Shown here: in pieces, positions 2,187 through 9,712 of the stretch
How the letters are laid out: each line of letters begins with the position of its first letter
Position numbering within the stretch: the first letter of the stretch is position 1
Source: a virus
Reading direction: 5' to 3' (one strand)
Length of the DNA: 13,198 nucleotides
UHGV virus genome: UHGV-2130109
Translations under genes and position numbers: made by a program
The notes under the pieces: model-generated
The model's input: the letters and a program-made list of their open reading frames with translations, nothing else
Told to the model about the DNA's origin: nothing
Databases searched by the model: none

Positions 2187-2387
2187 TTATGCAGTTGTTT
2201 TTTTGTTACTTGGGAAGGGCTTTATTTCTTCCGCATAAACGCTTCCATCAGCGTTTATAGTTAAAAAAATCTTTCGGCCTGCATGAATGGCCTTGTTAAT
2301 CGCGCTTTGATATACGCCGAGATCTTTAGCCGTCTTGGTTTGCCCAAAGCGTATTGCATAATCTTTCAGGGTTATGCGTTGTTCCAT
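2187..2387 (-). CDS. cro: Cro repressor
   Basis: 66 aa, [66 protein letters not shown]; about 2 substitutions relative to lambda Cro as I recall it. SD TAAGGAGG upstream. Confidence 0.95.
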
Positions 2388-2413
2388 ACAACCTCCTTAG
2401 TACAGGCAATCAT

Positions 2414-2477
2414 TATCACCGCTAGAGGTATAATAGTCAACACGCACGGTGTTAGATATTTATCCCTTGCGGTGATA
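2414..2477. promoter_or_regulatory. Right operator oR1-oR2-oR3 with divergent pR (toward cro) and pRM (toward cI)
   Basis: 17-bp sites: oR1 2414-2430 (TACCTCTAGCGGTGATA on the cro strand, one G->A relative to lambda), oR2 2438-2454 (TAACACCGTGCGTGTTG, identical to lambda), oR3 2461-2477 (TATCACCGCAAGGGATA, identical to lambda). The cI ATG at 2488 sits at the 5' end of the pRM transcript, consistent with the leaderless lambda cI mRNA. Confidence 0.9.
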
Positions 2478-2484
2478 GATTTAA

Positions 2485-3201
<717 letters not shown>

Positions 3202-3271
3202 TGAAGGGCTAAATGTCTCCTAATAAAAACAGCAATCATTTGAAATTATTAATAATTATAGAGGCTTAGTC

Positions 3272-4270
3272 TTGGAAATCAGCACGGCGGTTATTCATTC
3301 CGAAGAAGATGCTTTGCGTTTTGTTGAGATGTACATCGCTGGGCAAGATCTTCCTGATGGAATATCATTTGAAGGGTGGCCTAACTTAACCTTCCGTCTT
3401 ACTGGTGACAAATTTCATGGCAGTTTGACTCCTTCTGTCATGAAGGGTTTTGTTGAAATGCAGGCCCAAATAAACCGAGCTTATGCATTGTTAAAGTACG
3501 GAGTTCCTGACCCAAGAAAGCTTTCAAAAGAAGAGAAGGAAGCTATCGAAATTCAGGTGAATGTTGAGAATGGCTCGTCCTTGATAGAAGTTAATATGGA
3601 TGGGTTCATGGGTGAGGTTATACAAACTGCGGTGAGTAAAGTGGGCCCTCAAGAGATCGTTATTACAGTTTTAGGGGTCGCTCTTATATGGGGCGGCGTC
3701 GTCCTATTCAAAAAATATCTAGAAGACCGCAAAGAGATTCGCATGGCAGAAGTAAAAAGCGAGTCTGAGCGTGAACACCTTGCGACCATGCGCTTCATGT
3801 CTGAGCAGGAAACAAAACGAAGTGAATTATTGACTCAGATTATTAGCGAAAAACCCAAGCTAGACAACATGGAAAGACTTGCTCATGACGCAAAAACCGA
3901 CATAGTTAAATCATTTGTCAAGGCTGATACAGCTCAGATTGATGGCGTTGTATTGGATGCAGATCTATCCAAAACCCTCACTACAAATGCAAGGCGGAAA
4001 TCAATGGAGATCCGCCTTGATGGAAATTATCGCATTGAAAAGGTTGACTCCACTGATCCAGAGAGCTTCAAAGTGCAAGTGAGAAATGTTGACTCCGATC
4101 TAAGAATATCGTGCATAGTACAAGATGTTTTTCTCGACGCATCCGAGCATAAAAAAGCTCTTCAGCAAGCTGAGTGGGATAGAAAACCAGTTCATTTGTC
4201 AATCAACGCAAAAGAACTAGATGGTGAAATAAAGTCCGCGATAATACTTTATGTCAAAGAGATAACATAA
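3272..4270 (+). CDS. Hypothetical single-pass membrane protein occupying the rexA/rexB position downstream of cI; candidate lysogen-expressed exclusion/abortive-infection factor
   Basis: 332-codon ORF with TTG start 7 nt after a GAGG SD. Central hydrophobic helix (IVITVLGVALIWGGVVLF, about residues 129-147), soluble N-terminal domain, charged K/E-rich C-terminal half. AT-rich spacer and low GC relative to cI. I recognise no similarity to RexA or RexB. Confidence 0.6.
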   Translation: MEISTAVIHSEEDALRFVEMYIAGQDLPDGISFEGWPNLTFRLTGDKFHGSLTPSVMKGFVEMQAQINRAYALLKYGVPDPRKLSKEEKEAIEIQVNVENGSSLIEVNMDGFMGEVIQTAVSKVGPQEIVITVLGVALIWGGVVLFKKYLEDRKEIRMAEVKSESEREHLATMRFMSEQETKRSELLTQIISEKPKLDNMERLAHDAKTDIVKSFVKADTAQIDGVVLDADLSKTLTTNARRKSMEIRLDGNYRIEKVDSTDPESFKVQVRNVDSDLRISCIVQDVFLDASEHKKALQQAEWDRKPVHLSINAKELDGEIKSAIILYVKEIT

Positions 4271-4277
4271 TCCTCAT

Positions 4278-4303
4278 CCCGGCCTCAGCGCCGGGTTTTC
4301 TTT
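4278..4303 (+). terminator. Intrinsic terminator ending the cI operon (tIMM-like)
   Basis: cccggc-ctcagc-gccggg followed by ttttcttt, directly after the 3272-4270 stop. Confidence 0.6.
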
Positions 4304-4455
4304 GCCTCACGATCGCCCCACCTAAAAACACATAACCAATTGTATTTGTTGAAAAATAAATAGATACAACTCACTAAACATCGCAATTCTGATCTCTCGC
4401 CCTCCAAAGCAATACCCCAATTCAAAAAATAAATTCATATAAAAAACATACAGAT

Positions 4456-4518
4456 AACCATCTGCGGTGATGAGCTATCTCTAGCGGTGTTGACTTAAAT
4501 ACCACTAGCGGTGATACT
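4456..4518. promoter_or_regulatory. Left operator oL3-oL2-oL1 with pL (-35 TTGACT 4490-4495, -10 GATACT 4513-4518), transcribing rightward into N
   Basis: oL3 4456-4472 AACCATCTGCGGTGATG, oL2 4476-4492 TATCTCTAGCGGTGTTG, oL1 4500-4516 TACCACTAGCGGTGATA. Near-identical to lambda oL/pL except G->A in oL1 and oL2 and one change at the oL3 edge. Confidence 0.85.
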
Positions 4519-4586
4519 AAACACATCAGCAGGACGCACTACTCACCAGGGCGGTGAATATACAACGATTCGAATATGAATCTACG

Positions 4587-4766: not shown

Positions 4767-5150
4767 ATGACACGCAGAACTCAGTTCAAAGGCAATTCAC
4801 GCTCTCATCGTCGTGAGCGTTTAAAGGCAAAGGCATTAGCTAACGGCGTGCTGGCCCGCGAAGAAGCAATAAGTTCAGAAGTATTACACCGCCCTACTCT
4901 AAGCAGAGCGCAGATTCAGGCTAAAGGTACTCACGAAACGCCTGAGCGCATAGAAGACGCTAAGCCAATTAAGTTCATGGCACAGGACGTGATCTGGCAA
5001 CAGAAAGAATACAGACGCAATCTGGAGCGAGCGGCCATTGTGTACGCGAATGAGTTTGGACATAAGCAACCAGAAACTGGTGTATGTCTTCCAAACGTAG
5101 CCATTTACGCGGCAGGCTATCGCAAATCAGGAACAATAACAGCGAGGTGA
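4767..5150 (+). CDS. N: N-like transcription antitermination protein (P22 gene 24 type)
   Basis: 127 aa, first gene of the pL operon, AGGAGG SD. N-terminal arginine-rich motif (GNSRSHRRERLKAKALA) resembles the P22 N ARM (GNAKTRRHERRRKLAIER). C-terminal ..AIYAAGYRKSGTITAR resembles P22 gp24. Confidence 0.7.
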   Translation: MTRRTQFKGNSRSHRRERLKAKALANGVLAREEAISSEVLHRPTLSRAQIQAKGTHETPERIEDAKPIKFMAQDVIWQQKEYRRNLERAAIVYANEFGHKQPETGVCLPNVAIYAAGYRKSGTITAR

Positions 5151-5153
5151 TAA

Positions 5154-5867
5154 ATGACAACGCCTTCAGTTTTGCCGCAAAAATTATGGCGTCCACTTGC
5201 AGAGATTAAAAACTTCGTTGAAAAAATGCCTGATGGCGTTCGACTTACGGAAGTTACTAAAAAAGTTAAGACATTTGCCGAACTGTCAGGCAAGGAGAGA
5301 AACCAGCTCATCGATTTTATCGATAAACGGGAAAGCATCATTGTATTTAAGGTCAGAAAAGAAGGTTCTGGTAACGGAGTAACCTTTTTCCGCCACAAAA
5401 AATATGGATATCCCAAACGGGAAGGAAACGTGACCATCATTAAGGACCTTCAGTCAAAATTATGCACCAGATGCGGGCAGACAAAATCAGTCGATGATTT
5501 TTATTCAGATGCCAGCAAACGTGACGGGAGAGCCATTTATTGTAAGAAGTGCGAATCTGCAATGAAACGCTTGCGCAGAGAATGTAATAAATTAATTCTG
5601 CAACAACAGGAATCTGAAATGAATAACCTCAAAGTAGTTTCACCTTCACCAGAAACACTCAGAAAACAGGCAGAAGAATTGCTGAAAGCCGCCGAAATTG
5701 CGGAGAAAAAACGTCAGGAAGATGATGTATTCAACAAAAAACTCGCGCCCTTAAAACTTGAAATTCTTCAGGCCGCCGGAAAAATGCAGCTTAAACTGGA
5801 CGAGTTCATCGACTGCATGGATGAAATGAATAAAGCGGTTCAGAAACTTAAAGAACTGACCTCCTGA
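5154..5867 (+). CDS. Hypothetical protein with CxxC-x19-CxxC zinc-ribbon motif and coiled-coil C-terminus
   Basis: 237-codon ORF starting 4 nt after the N stop with GAGGTGA SD. Low GC. Motif CTRCGQTKSVDDFYSDASKRDGRAIYCKKC. No family recognised. Confidence 0.6.
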   Translation: MTTPSVLPQKLWRPLAEIKNFVEKMPDGVRLTEVTKKVKTFAELSGKERNQLIDFIDKRESIIVFKVRKEGSGNGVTFFRHKKYGYPKREGNVTIIKDLQSKLCTRCGQTKSVDDFYSDASKRDGRAIYCKKCESAMKRLRRECNKLILQQQESEMNNLKVVSPSPETLRKQAEELLKAAEIAEKKRQEDDVFNKKLAPLKLEILQAAGKMQLKLDEFIDCMDEMNKAVQKLKELTS

Positions 5868-5898
5868 TATTAATAAATCGCAACTCACGGAATTAACC

Positions 5899-6258
5899 AT
5901 GAACGAAACAGAACTGAAGCACATTATCGCCCTGCTTCTGGAAGATGCCCGACAGGTTTATCAACTTAGCCCAAATTCCTCAACGCTGGGACGCATCAGG
6001 ATGGCGGAAGCAGCACTGATACAGGAAAATGAAAACAGCACATCTGAAGTTAGTGCTAATGGTGAAAATGAAGCAATAGAAATAAACAGCAATATCAGCG
6101 ATAGTTGCGTCGCTTACAGCCACCAAATAATTCGTGTAAGTGCAAGAATAATGGAAGTGATGGCAAGTGAGCTTGAAAAGCACAACATCAAGCCCACTGA
6201 TTGTTGTTTAAGAACCGTAATGGACGTTATTTATTACTCGATGTTCCGAAGTCGCTAA
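5899..6258 (+). CDS. Hypothetical protein (119 aa)
   Basis: ORF directly following 5154-5867. Weak SD. Low GC. No family recognised. Confidence 0.45.
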   Translation: MNETELKHIIALLLEDARQVYQLSPNSSTLGRIRMAEAALIQENENSTSEVSANGENEAIEINSNISDSCVAYSHQIIRVSARIMEVMASELEKHNIKPTDCCLRTVMDVIYYSMFRSR

Positions 6259-6658
6259 CAGCTGCGAGTTTTTTCATCAAAAAAGGATTCAAATGCGTCG
6301 TAAAATACGGCAATAGCACCGCCCCTATCTACCGCGGCAGGAACTGCCTTTTGAGGTATTTTTTCTTCCCTGAATTGTGTGTTGTAGGTATCAACAGCCA
6401 GTCGCATCAGAAACATTGCCTTTTCTTCTTATGTCATAAATTCACCCTCCTTACGGGGTTGTAGTTAAGGAGTTCTCCACGGGTCAGGTGGAGTTCGTGC
6501 GCCGGACACGGGTGTGAATCCGGCAATCTCAGTTTACTGAACAGATATTCCCCTGAAAAGCCAGGGCATAACACGAAAGCGCACGGCAAAGCTCGTATAT
6601 CTGTACGGCATCGTTAAATTTTCTTCGACCGTGCGCTTCCGGTTGTGAATAACAACAT

Positions 6659-6716
6659 TGCTGTGTGTAGTCATTGGCGGCATCAGTTTATTGCTGGCTG
6701 ATGTCCGCCCTTTTTT
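6659..6716 (+). ncRNA. dicF: DicF-like small RNA (cell-division-inhibiting sRNA family) ending in an intrinsic terminator
   Basis: ...TTGGCGGCATCAGTTTATTGCTGGCTGATGTCCGCCCTTTTTT shares the UUGGCGG(U/C)AUCAGUUU core and the CCGCCC-U-run terminator with E. coli DicF as I recall it (UUUCUGGUGACGUUUGGCGGUAUCAGUUUUACUCCGUGACUGCUCUGCCGCCC). Preceded by about 200 nt of ORF-poor, hairpin-rich sequence. The 5' end is approximate. Confidence 0.45.
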
Positions 6717-6892
6717 AAAGTGAATTTTGTGATGCGGTGAATGCGGCTAAGCGCACGCGGAACAGTTAAACCGACAGGATGTCACGGCAAGTCATCATCC
6801 CCTGACCCGGCGTTAATTGTTAACTGGTTAACGTCACCTGGAGGCACCAGGCACCGCATCAACAAAGTTCATTTGTGAAAATGGAGATAATT

Positions 6893-7114
6893 ATGATTGC
6901 TCATCACTTCGGGACTGATGAAATACCACGTCAGTGCGTGACACCTGGCGATTATGTTCTTCATGAAGGCCGCACATATATCGCTTCAGCAAACAATATT
7001 GAAAAGAGAAAGCTCTATATTCGTAACTTCACGACAAAAACATGCATTACCGACTGCATGATTAAAGTTTTCCTGGGACGCGATGGTTTGCCTGTAAAGG
7101 CCGAATCATGGTGA
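6893..7114 (+). CDS. dicB: Small protein, possible DicB-like cell-division inhibitor (functional counterpart of lambda Kil)
   Basis: ORF track gives a GTG start at 6875; the ATG at 6893 has a GGAG SD 6 nt upstream. Segment [27 protein letters not shown] is weakly similar to E. coli DicB (INKRKQERELLNKICIVSMLARLRLMPKG, from memory). Lies immediately downstream of the DicF-like sRNA as in the Qin dicF-dicB arrangement. Confidence 0.4.
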
Positions 7115-7188
7115 TGAGCAATAAATACGCTCTCTAAATCCACACTGAAACAACAATTCACATTAGTTATCAACACTGGAAACGTAAA

Positions 7189-7581
7189 ATGAAAGAACTC
7201 GCACAGAACGAAGTGTTCTCAGAATCCTGCCCTGACGCAATAAATGAGCTTAAAGAAATCGCAGCACGCATAAATGAAATATGCAAAAAACACAAGATAG
7301 ATTATGTCTATTCATTTTCAGAGCTAACAGAAATCGCAATTAACGAATATAAGGACAGTCGTTTTGTTTCCTTCGGTTTGTATTGCGAAACTTCCAGCCC
7401 ATATATTCATGCAGCATCTGAAATTGTCGACAGTACAATTAAACCACAGGCAATACTGGAACTGGCAATGGCTCTTCAGCTTATCAGAGAGAATGGTGAA
7501 TGCACCTGTGACTGCCCTGAATGCCAGCACGAACAGACTCAGGCCAGCACCAAAACCGCAAACAAGAAAGCATTTCACTGA
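7189..7581 (+). CDS. Hypothetical Cys-rich protein (130 aa)
   Basis: ORF with C-terminal CTCDCPECQ cluster. No family recognised. Confidence 0.45.
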   Translation: MKELAQNEVFSESCPDAINELKEIAARINEICKKHKIDYVYSFSELTEIAINEYKDSRFVSFGLYCETSSPYIHAASEIVDSTIKPQAILELAMALQLIRENGECTCDCPECQHEQTQASTKTANKKAFH

Positions 7582-7651: not shown

Positions 7652-9712
7652 ATGAGCACTGATAAACAAGTTTACCCACTGTATTACGAAGCAAAAAATG
7701 ACAAGGTAAGAAAACGCCTCGGCATTAAAGGCGGTTTTTACTGGGCTGAGGCGAAAAAATTATCCATTGCAATCTCTCGTGGTGCTGTTGCGATTGACGA
7801 TGCGGGCTACGATGAAGATGACTTTAAAAAACCTGTTCGCGTTCATTTGCCCGTCGTAAATGACCTTCCACCGGAAGGAGTGTTTGATACCGAATTCTGT
7901 AATCGCTATGAAAAAGGCGGTAACGATGGCATCACCATGATGGCTATACCCTCCGATGACAACATCAACGGTGAAGATGCCACAACGGCTGACGGTGGCA
8001 ACGATGACCCAGACGGAGCTGTTCCGGGTAATGCGGAGAAAATCGAATCCACAGACAGCGACGATGACTGTATTGACTGTGAAATTCCCGTCGCCACTCT
8101 CAGTCTTACCCATCGTTTCCTTCACCTCTTCTTCTTTAGCAAGGATAAAGATGGAAAATACCGGCATCACGCCACACCAGAACAACGTAATAATGTGATC
8201 CGTCTGGAGATGGACACAGAAGATAGTTACCTTCAGAGCCTGCTTACTGCTGTGCGTTCACATCCAGAGCTGGATAAGCTGACGAATTATCACCTTAGCC
8301 GCCTGGCTGAATCTGTAGGGAAAGCATTCCCCCACTCTGCAAATCATCGCATCAGCCCGGCTGAATTCGACAAGTTCATTTCCACCTGGATGAAAACTGA
8401 CTACCTTGATCAGGGCCTGCTGACAAAAGAATGGCAGAACGGAAATTATGTTTCAGGCATTACCCGTACGCCTTCCGGTGCTAACGCTGGCGGCGGAAAT
8501 ATTACCGATCGTGGTGAAGGATTCAAACATGATAAGACATCACTCGCACGAGATGTAGCCACCGGCGTTCTGGCCCGTTCAATGGATGTGGATATTTATA
8601 ACCTGCACCCAGCACACGCAAAACGCGTTGAAGAAATCGTGTCAGAGAATAAGCCGCCCTTTTCTGTTTTTCGCGACAAATTTATCGCCATGCCCGGTGG
8701 GCTGGATTATTCCCGCGCCATTGTGGTGGCTTCCGTGAAAGAAGCACCAATCGGCATTGAGGCCATCCCGGCACGCGTGACTGAATATCTCAACAAAGTG
8801 TTGACCGAAACCGATCACGCTAACCCGGATCCGGAAATCGTGGAAATTGCCTGCGGTCGCTCATCAGCACCGATGCCGCAGCGCGGAACAGCAGAAGGAA
8901 AACATGGCGATGAAGAAAAGCAACAAACATCGGACACAATGGCTAATGAACAGGCAGCGCCTGAATCAGTGGAAGAAATTCCAGTTAAACATAATGAGGA
9001 CACGCAATCACTGGAAAATGTCTCATCTGTAGAAACGAAATACCAGGAACTGAGGGAGGAACTCAATAAAGCCAGGGAAAACATCCCCCCAAAAAATCCA
9101 GTCGATGCCGACAAATTACTGGCGGCTTCTCGCGGAGAATTCGTTGAAGGTATCAGCGACCCAACCGACCCGAAGTGGGTGAAGGGGATCCAGACTCGCG
9201 ACACTGAAGACCAGAATCAATCCAAAGTGGAACAAAATGAGCCAGAAGCGGAACAAAACAGCCCGGATACGCAACAAAACGGACCAGCAGAGCAACAACC
9301 AGAGCCAGTAGCACAACCGGAGCTGGAAAAATCCTGCCGCGTCTGTGCTCAGACTGGTGGGGGCAACTGCCCTGACTGCGGTCCGGTAATAGGAGATGAA
9401 ACTTACGCTGAAATTTTTGGAGAAAACGGCACATCTGCTGAAGAGAACTCAGCACAAGCGGATGTCCTGGAAAGTTCCGCTGATACAACTCATGAACTCG
9501 AGGCAGTTGCCCGGAATGCTCAGGGCAACAATGCGCCCGACGATAAGGCTGATTCAGAACCAGAAATTCTCGACTGGAAAAGACAGCTCGTGATTGCAGC
9601 CGTCTATGGTTTGTGCGCCAACCCCGCATGTATAGCCACAGCGCCAGCAATCCCTGATATCGCCATCATGATTGCCAACAGGCTTGAAAATTTCGGAGGT
9701 GATAAATCATGA
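7652..9712 (+). CDS. Large acidic protein (686 aa) resembling the N-terminal non-nuclease region of RecE (exonuclease VIII) but lacking a recognisable nuclease domain; C-terminal CxxC-x7-CxxC zinc ribbon
   Basis: Start chosen at ATG 7652 (MSTDKQ..., AGAGG upstream) rather than the track's 7364, which overlaps the preceding gene. Blocks such as [50 protein letters not shown] and [28 protein letters not shown] match my recollection of the E. coli RecE N-terminal region. Stop overlaps the gam start (ATGA at 9709-9712). Confidence 0.6.

Follow-up and report, generated by a model that had tools for sequence, protein, structure and literature searches.

We examined the 13,198-nt UHGV virus genome UHGV-2130109 (the window), which is the immunity and early-left region of a lambdoid Escherichia coli prophage of the lambda-immunity, Shiga toxin (Stx) phage-like kind, with its pL operon on the + strand. 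Directly downstream of the antiterminator gene N lie two open reading frames (ORFs), ORF1 and ORF2. In our estimate there is roughly an even chance that ORF1 encodes an oligomeric, nucleic acid-binding early protein made with N, whereas ORF2 is a separate small, acidic, helical accessory protein. Both are ordinary accessory genes of the lambdoid early operon, and both proteins had already been catalogued, as hypothetical proteins and as PHROGs. What is new here is descriptive, i.e., how ORF1 divides into core and optional domains, how its relatives are assembled from modules, how closely it is joined to N, that ORF2 is a separate unit and that both genes precede the KilS terminator. A first-pass annotation had described the pair as an AT-rich, horizontally acquired two-gene cargo cassette, marked by a zinc ribbon and unlike any lambda gene. 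The existence of the genes, their slot, their distance from lambda proteins and their AT-richness were confirmed; the cassette, the ribbon as hallmark and the cargo status were not.

Both ORFs are real genes, beyond chance, and both occupy the predicted positions on the + strand, i.e., 5154-5867 for ORF1 (237 aa) and 5899-6258 for ORF2 (119 aa). ORF1 matched the PHROG 2539 profile at 5e-128 (residues 3-236 against profile positions 1-228 of 229) and contains every invariant column of that family, in the N-terminal domain as well as in the C-terminal helix. ORF2 matched PHROG 2982 at 8.9e-71 over residues 1-119 of 119. When ORF1 was compared with four phage alleles, the ratio of nonsynonymous to synonymous substitution rates (dN/dS) was 0.06-0.16, at dS of up to 0.19, a constraint like that on kil. 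ORF1 is under strong purifying selection. For ORF2, dN/dS was 0.3-0.44 at deeper divergence (dS 0.4-0.55) and 0.5-1.2 between close alleles, and the gene is therefore coding but quickly evolving. Searches of both proteins, and of three segments of ORF1, against Pfam, NCBIfam and PADLOC yielded only sub-threshold noise (e.g., IMD, Stc1, DUF6510, HMMR_N), with zero PADLOC matches for either protein at E <= 0.1. The lack of resemblance to lambda proteins was upheld by BLASTP comparisons with Ral, SieB, Ea10, CIII and orf28, all of which gave E > 2. SieB was also looked for with Pfam PF14163, which did not match, and there was no BLASTP similarity to lambda SieB. Neither protein has a transmembrane helix (maximum 19-residue hydropathy 0.55 for ORF1 and 0.73 for ORF2).

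ORF1 is composed of three parts, all on the + strand. The first is a basic domain predicted to be a winged helix (aa 1-90; 5154-5423), with an isoelectric point (pI) of 10.05, that ends in a conserved LRHKKYGYP and thus carries the conserved basic motif RHKK. The second is an optional zinc-ribbon insert (aa 93-150; 5430-5603) of the type found at the N-terminus of HNH/EndoVII proteins, whose motif is C104xxC107-x22-C130xxC133 and not the CxxC-x19-CxxC first proposed. The third is the family-defining C-terminal helix or helical hairpin with a heptad repeat (aa 166-236; 5649-5861), delimited from its invariant columns and an AlphaFold2 model. Its conserved stretch reads PE.LR.QAE.LL.AAE.AE ... 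P199 ... KLE..Q ... DE..D ... K. The ribbon region is also basic (pI 9.47), and the C-terminal part is mildly acidic. Residues ~93-150 are wholly missing from family members of 172-205 aa, and the conserved core consequently excludes the zinc ribbon; since most members lack it, the ribbon cannot be the defining feature that it had been taken for.

The AlphaFold2 model, built on a 64-sequence alignment, had a mean predicted local distance difference test score (pLDDT) of 77.7. It comprised a helix-helix-helix-strand-strand unit at residues 9-81 (pLDDT ~90), a small beta ribbon at residues 93-130 and one long helix at residues 166-236, with pLDDT values of 83-93 over residues 200-236. The charged coiled-coil tail of the first-pass annotation was thereby borne out, given that 37% of residues 151-237 are charged and that 10 of the 11 a/d heptad positions within residues 200-237 are hydrophobic. 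Foldseek comparison with the PDB returned winged helices (Rpc34, PadR, RTP, BlaI and TFIIE) at probabilities of 0.96-0.99 but E-values of only ~0.05, and BFVD contributed matches of two kinds, uncharacterised winged helices from phages and ribbons located at the N-termini of HNH endonucleases. As modelled, ORF1 would share with PadR, BlaI and RTP, the best Foldseek matches, an N-terminal winged helix and a long C-terminal helix able to pair subunits. It differs from them in the absence of any sequence relationship (E ~0.05 by structure), in its inserted ribbon, in an unrelated and much longer C-terminal helix and in being a phage early-operon gene. Judged from the model, the closest parallel to ORF1 would be a winged-helix protein of the PadR or RTP type that dimerises through a helix and has borrowed an HNH-type ribbon, although ORF1 is not a member of those families.

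The ribbon sequence matched only the ribbon parts of phrog_1035, phrog_2340, phrog_2255 and phrog_2633 (EndoVII/HNH) and of phrog_5558 ('Lar-like'), and the ribbon segment had no match above threshold in Pfam. ORF1 shares with HNH/EndoVII homing endonucleases the N-terminal ribbon motif CxxCG..K....F......DG....CK.C, and some of its relatives contain AP2 or several ribbons; it differs from them in having no nuclease domain. The profile matches stop before the nuclease region (phrog_1035 positions 63-116 of 271), no Pfam HNH or EndoVII domain was detected, and a nuclease function of ORF1 was rejected for want of a catalytic domain. A relationship to MukF/kleisin was likewise rejected (E 1.5 in a PDB profile search; 9.3% probability by hhalign against E. 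coli MukF, over a helical stretch only), and a merely 'faint' precomputed match of some ORF1 relatives to PF27269 (YonG_N) was set aside. ORF1 belongs to none of the Ral/Lar, SieB, HNH nuclease and MukF families.

The relatives of ORF1 provide the main argument for nucleic acid binding. An exhaustive HMMER profile search of 1.84 billion representatives identified only 108 ORF1-family proteins. The relatives found in this way all retain the C-terminal helix and carry varied N-terminal modules, i.e., one to three tandem winged helices, one to three zinc ribbons, AP2 or an N-terminal AlpA-type helix-turn-helix; those with two or three tandem winged-helix copies reach 365-545 aa. The C-terminal domain is also common to phrog_2565 and to proteins with other N-terminal DNA-binding modules. 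Every module found fused to this helix is of a nucleic acid-binding type and, because the N-terminal and ribbon regions of ORF1 are basic and its C-terminal part mildly acidic, we propose that ORF1 itself binds nucleic acid.

A search of 5.8 billion proteins recovered 66 ORF1 relatives, every one of them unnamed, from Escherichia, Kluyvera, Enterobacter, Klebsiella, Citrobacter, Cronobacter, Salmonella, Pantoea, Serratia, Providencia, Edwardsiella, Pectobacterium and other genera. Among 185,579 species genomes (one per species) there were 10 ORF1-family loci, nine of them in Enterobacterales; the tenth was a 2.6-kb contig labelled Martelella, which is probably contamination. The family is therefore small and confined to Enterobacterales prophages. 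The 1.2-kb ORF1-ORF2 block was present in 81 of 5,426 complete E. coli genomes, near-complete in 61 and always chromosomal, including the Stx2a prophages of O104:H4. It also occurred in six phage records that represent four phages (Shigella Stx 75/02, POCJ13, phiSTEC1589-Stx1c and PhiR5_2).

The position of ORF1 is conserved as well. Ten loci, distributed over six genera (Escherichia, Shigella, Citrobacter, Kluyvera, Buttiauxella and Enterobacter), had an ORF1-family gene as the immediate 3' neighbour of N, 0-20 nt away; they were the window, PhiR5_2, O104:H4, phiSTEC1589, POCJ13, one Citrobacter, two Kluyvera-type, one Buttiauxella and one Enterobacter locus. An eleventh case after N was an AlpA-fused variant on a metagenome contig. 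The N of the window (4767-5150, + strand) is a 127-aa protein with the C-terminal end ...CLPNVAIYAAGYRKSGTITAR, was recognized by Pfam PF25694 (N_peptide, 1.2e-12) and by RefSeq annotation on identical DNA, and presumably belongs to the 933W/H-19B-like type. Other loci carried an 86-aa N (Citrobacter) or, in the Kluyvera-type loci, a lambda-type N (PF11438) and a 121-aa N. The recombination modules of these loci also differed (Red, RecT or ERF), and their replication modules varied too. Given this fixed partnership with N and the strong purifying selection, the description of ORF1 as horizontally acquired cargo was an overstatement. In O104:H4 strain 2009EL-2050 (NC_018650.1, locus L003, 4668-5051), RefSeq annotates just a 69-nt 'regulator, incomplete' pseudogene for N; a full 127-aa N ORF, 97% identical to that of the window, actually precedes ORF1 there.

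At the N/ORF1 junction (5141-5153, + strand), the Shine-Dalgarno sequence of ORF1, GCGAGGT, is embedded in the last codons of N and is followed by the TGA stop and a 3-nt spacer. The Shine-Dalgarno sequence had been correctly noted; the spacing had been given as 4 nt, and the true gap between the TGA (5148-5150) and the ATG at 5154 is 3 nt (TAA). The ~14 nt 5' of the ORF1 start, acagcgaggt(a/g)a, travel with ORF1 homologues into other genera and are kept even behind a lambda-type N (locus L011), where they no longer encode the N C-terminus. We infer that ORF1 is probably translated by coupling to N.

The adjacency to N has exceptions. The ORF1 homologue of Providencia is found four genes after N, and that of Morganella is flanked by different genes. 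In a 93-kb Cronobacter phage the homologue has a large methyltransferase-like gene on one side and a DnaB-like helicase ORF on the other. A distant 172-aa subfamily, represented in one Stx1 phage among others, resides in the nin region, between KilA-N and DUF968 genes and upstream of Q. In Serratia the homologue lies 3' of an HNH-AP2 gene and an apparent N remnant. The Serratia prophages (loci L014/L015, 5411-5997) have this HNH_3-AP2 endonuclease gene in the place expected for N, and a 36-aa ORF with an N-like end (…CLPEVAKFAAGNR…) lies between it and the ORF1 homologue; the endonuclease gene may be a homing-endonuclease insertion into or beside N.

The early timing of expression is suggested by the terminators of the operon. 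The pL promoter (4490-4518, + strand; TTGACT-17-GATACT) was found by promoter scan in a lambda-type oL/pL region, where window positions 4278-4548 share 91% identity with that of lambda. Downstream of pL, no strong intrinsic terminator was found before the one at 6676-6716, the only other + strand candidate being a 5-bp stem inside N. It is therefore probable that a single transcript covers N, ORF1 and ORF2 ahead of N-dependent read-through, and that their products would be made together immediately on induction. In lambda, by contrast, tL1 directly follows N. The terminator belongs to a homologue of the small RNA KilS (~6625-6716, + strand), with a hairpin at 6676-6709 and a T-run at 6711-6716, a predicted folding energy of -20.5 kcal/mol (z -3.85) and a compensatory base-pair change in phiSTEC1589. 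KilS has been described as a 98-nt Hfq-associated small RNA from the kilR 5' untranslated region (PMC8175672). Window positions 6631-7125 were 83% identical to Rac kilS-kilR, and an Rfam scan of the window found no family. The KilS homologue is kept in related Stx phages, just upstream of a KilR-type kil. The first gene past the terminator is kil (6893-7114, + strand), which encodes a KilR-type FtsZ inhibitor (NCBIfam NF008465, 6.4e-48) that is 94.5% identical to Rac KilR.

ORF2 has a different history. It is acidic (pI 5.0) and predicted to be helical, and its AlphaFold2 model was weak (pLDDT 63.6), with two helix pairs separated by a disordered acidic linker. A profile search of the PDB gave nothing significant, the best match being a HAMP protein at E 0.8. 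Full-length relatives were confined to E. coli and Shigella, where they formed 15 clusters that included several truncated or frameshifted ones, and a profile search added no proteins to the first 15. Proteins of Cronobacter phage phiES15, Aeromonas phage pAEv1818 and a Serratia phage share the N-terminal 50 residues of ORF2 at 44-52% identity. In phiES15 and pAEv1818, which are phages without N, the protein with this module is encoded by the first early-left gene after a DicA-type repressor. The likeness of phiES15 gp010 and pAEv1818 gp20 to ORF2 thus lies in this module (44-48% identity) and in the promoter-proximal early-left position and, for pAEv1818, extends to a convergent overlapping ORF and a kil/recE-type module behind gp20; the differences are that the C-terminal halves are dissimilar and that these phages lack ORF1 as well as N.

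ORF1 and ORF2 do not form the proposed two-gene cassette, in that ORF1 travels with N across genera while the next gene changes, and ORF2 is tied to a Rac-like kilS-kil-recE' module. Outside E. coli and Shigella, the gene 3' of ORF1 was always other than ORF2. ORF2 was intact in ~19 E. coli genomes with a 61-aa remnant of ORF1, the N of which we take to be of the phage-21 type, and in one defective prophage N and ORF1 were deleted and ORF2 followed cII directly. A toxin-antitoxin or other obligate two-gene system was rejected on account of this separate occurrence. We suggest instead that ORF1 and ORF2 are independent early-left genes made neighbours by lambdoid mosaicism, in a pL operon segment that would consist of N, ORF1 and ORF2 and end at the first terminator. 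The mosaic joint would bring together an N-type module (N and ORF1) and a Rac/DicA-type module (ORF2, the convergent ORF, kilS, kil, the ydaE-like ORF and recE').

The Rac early-left region (ydaG-ydaF-sieB-kilS-kilR-ydaE-racC-recE) is homologous to the window from 6631 on (kilS, kilR, the YdaE-like C-terminus and the N-terminal part of RecE), with ORF1, ORF2 and a convergent ORF in the places of ydaG, ydaF and the convergent sieB. It differs in that ORF1 and ORF2 are unrelated to YdaF, YdaG and SieB by BLASTP, and in that Rac has no N. The slot assigned to the two genes by the first-pass annotation was hence correct, i.e., a promoter-proximal pL position where lambda has ral/sieB and Rac has ydaG/ydaF/sieB. 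The convergent small ORF (PHROG 2605; 6227-6440, - strand) overlaps the 3' end of ORF2 by ~30 nt. It encodes 69 aa in O104:H4, where it has a strong Shine-Dalgarno sequence; the copy in the window is interrupted by a stop at codon 3 and by a 1-nt insertion, and the ORF is absent from POCJ13. Its place and orientation are those of sieB in Rac.

Base composition did not set the pair apart. The GC content of ORF1 (0.410) and ORF2 (0.425) is lower than that of N (0.490) and of gam, bet and exo (0.485-0.519), in agreement with the AT-richness first remarked upon; kil (0.421), the 130-aa ORF (0.415), the 332-aa ORF (0.420) and cro (0.408) are equally AT-rich, however, and composition thus does not single out ORF1 and ORF2. 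Nor did the two genes look like a moron: 4 promoter-like sites were found against 5.1 expected by chance, there is no terminator from N to 6676, low GC is common to other genes of the window, and the ribosome-binding site of ORF1 is embedded in N.

Taken together, these data lead us to favor ORF1 as an oligomeric nucleic acid-binding early protein. Its basic, predicted winged helix, supplemented by the HNH-type zinc ribbon, would bind DNA or possibly RNA; its invariant C-terminal heptad helix would form dimers or higher oligomers, or dock onto a partner; and the protein, made alongside N, might serve the lytic programme early on, by regulation, as an architectural element or by protecting the genome. 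Nucleic acid binding, oligomerisation and any biological role are all inferred. Several observations weigh against this proposal. The whole-protein model had a predicted template modelling score of 0.40, and the arrangement of the domains is consequently not fixed by it. The recognition-helix residues of the winged helix are not strongly conserved, and the invariant charged residues of the C-terminal helix suggest a specific partner and not simple self-association. In ~19 E. coli genomes, a mosaic junction inside ORF1 has cut the gene to its last 61 codons; prophage maintenance, at least, can thus do without ORF1. Transcription may also end in a Rho-dependent manner between N and 6676, and immediate-early timing is consequently no more than probable. 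Finally, literature searches retrieved no functional or experimental data on any ORF1-family member.

The strongest alternative, although we regard it as doubtful, is that ORF1, ORF2 or both are anti-restriction, anti-defence or host-takeover factors that protect unmodified phage DNA, like Ral, Lar or Ocr. Such a function had been put forward at the outset, and support for it has remained indirect, through early expression and a 'Lar-like' PHROG match confined to the ribbon, with no match to Pfam Lar, Ral/RalR or PADLOC. Both genes are promoter-proximal and precede the first terminator, their place is that of ral and sieB in lambda and of ydaG, ydaF and sieB in Rac, and the ORF1 ribbon matched phrog_5558 ('Lar-like restriction alleviation protein') at 2e-9. 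ORF2, being small, acidic, partly disordered and taxonomically restricted, with dN/dS of up to ~1 between close alleles, has a profile common among counter-defence proteins. The 'Lar-like' match, however, is restricted to a generic zinc ribbon that is missing from most ORF1 relatives, the ribbon segment did not match Pfam PF14354 (Lar_restr_allev) even at E <= 10, and BLASTP showed neither lambda Ral nor Rac RalR to be similar. The restriction alleviation proteins, Ral of lambda and Lar/RalR of Rac, do resemble ORF1 in being products of non-essential early-left genes, ral lies shortly after N in lambda, and the ORF1 insert has four cysteines; ORF1 differs in sequence, is three to four times larger, has a predicted winged helix and a coiled coil and carries the ribbon only as an option. 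Furthermore, ORF1 is highly conserved and built of modules of DNA-binding type, no library searched contained an anti-defence homologue of either gene, and both sequences were missing from the supplements of one large accessory-gene screen, that of the preprint by Silas et al.

A broader version of the favored reading, which we hold to be a little less probable again, would combine the two genes. The ORF1 family would be an unrecognised immediate-early partner of N in lambdoid phages, modular and nucleic acid-binding, that engages a specific host or phage target through its C-terminal helix and either shields the new phage genome from host defence or adjusts early transcription, and ORF2 would be a rapidly evolving counter-defence protein. 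By analogy with T7 gene 0.3, the segment from N to the first terminator might then serve as a slot for 'first responders'.

We find it improbable that ORF1 is functionally tied to N, as an RNA-binding or RNA polymerase-associated factor that tunes N antitermination, N translation or the stability of the early transcript. This would explain why ORF1 is welded to the 3' end of N, with the adjacency kept across several N types and a ribosome-binding site inside N, and it would suit both the winged-helix matches, which include Rpc34, TFIIE, TFIIIC and RNA-binding SelB domains, and the invariant charged face of the C-terminal helix, which suggests a defined partner. Against it stand the distant subfamily in the nin region, far from N, the position four genes after N in Providencia, the other neighbours in Morganella and in Cronobacter phage JK004, and some prophages with an N21-type N and no ORF1. 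Shared N 3' ends could, moreover, give the linkage by recombination alone. To our knowledge, an H-19B-type N works without other phage factors, which also counts against such a tie. Least probable is that ORF1 derives from a homing endonuclease, as a relic that has lost the nuclease or as a domesticated DNA-binding arm, with no role of its own or only that of a selfish remnant, since the features that recall such an origin (a zinc ribbon, AP2 and possibly a winged helix, all accessory DNA-binding modules of phage HNH/EndoVII endonucleases, and the Serratia HNH-AP2 gene immediately upstream of an ORF1 homologue) are opposed by dN/dS values that indicate purifying selection and not decay, a C-terminal domain unrelated to nucleases, zero match to the catalytic HNH region and a genomic position fixed across genera.

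For ORF1 as an oligomeric nucleic acid-binding protein, the question now comes down to whether it binds nucleic acid, whether it oligomerises by means of the C-terminal helix and whether it is expressed ahead of antitermination, and the zinc ribbon and the 'Lar-like' label are removed as grounds for anti-restriction. ORF1 represents a conserved N-coupled slot in a very well studied phage group. The order N-ORF1-ORF2 recurs in Shigella Stx phages and in the Stx2a prophage carried by O104:H4, the lineage of the 2011 outbreak. If ORF1 or ORF2 affected induction, burst size or host range, this would matter for the dissemination of Shiga toxin phages. Should both genes prove to be common regulators, or accessories that the phage can spare, there is nothing unusual in the finding.

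Elsewhere in the window, the cro and cI genes are of lambda type, with CI 99% identical to that of lambda and window positions 2228-3202 97% identical to lambda DNA. After ORF2 the gene order is a 616-bp gap, the KilR-type kil, a 130-aa ORF, a 686-aa ORF, gam, bet, exo (93% identical to lambda) and int. The 130-aa ORF (7189-7581, + strand) has a C-terminal CxC..CxxC and a weak resemblance to the YnfU/YdaE zinc-binding family, and is highly divergent (59-71% identity) between otherwise similar phages. The match of the 686-aa ORF (7652-9712, + strand) to RecE (exonuclease VIII) is limited to the N-terminal ~600 residues of the latter and does not include the nuclease end; a full set of lambda gam, bet and exo genes comes next.

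Directly 3' of the lambda-type cI, in the slot occupied by rexA/rexB in lambda, is a gene for a 332-aa protein (phrog_6191; 3272-4270, + strand) with one predicted transmembrane helix (aa 128-146) and no significant match in Pfam, NCBIfam or PADLOC. We regard it as a candidate for an exclusion or defence gene expressed from the prophage. In other N-ORF1-ORF2 prophages the slot is filled differently, i.e., by a RuvC-family gene with a Ser/Thr kinase gene, or DUF1828. Lastly, the O-like replication gene (259-1341, - strand) holds a QEQEQEQE/QQHQPQQPDADS region, and the peptide HQPQQPDADSVMSGKPIGLTRR is repeated in two short minus-strand ORFs just downstream of it (1423-1739, - strand), a recurrence that suggests duplicated replication-gene fragments or iteron-like repeats.

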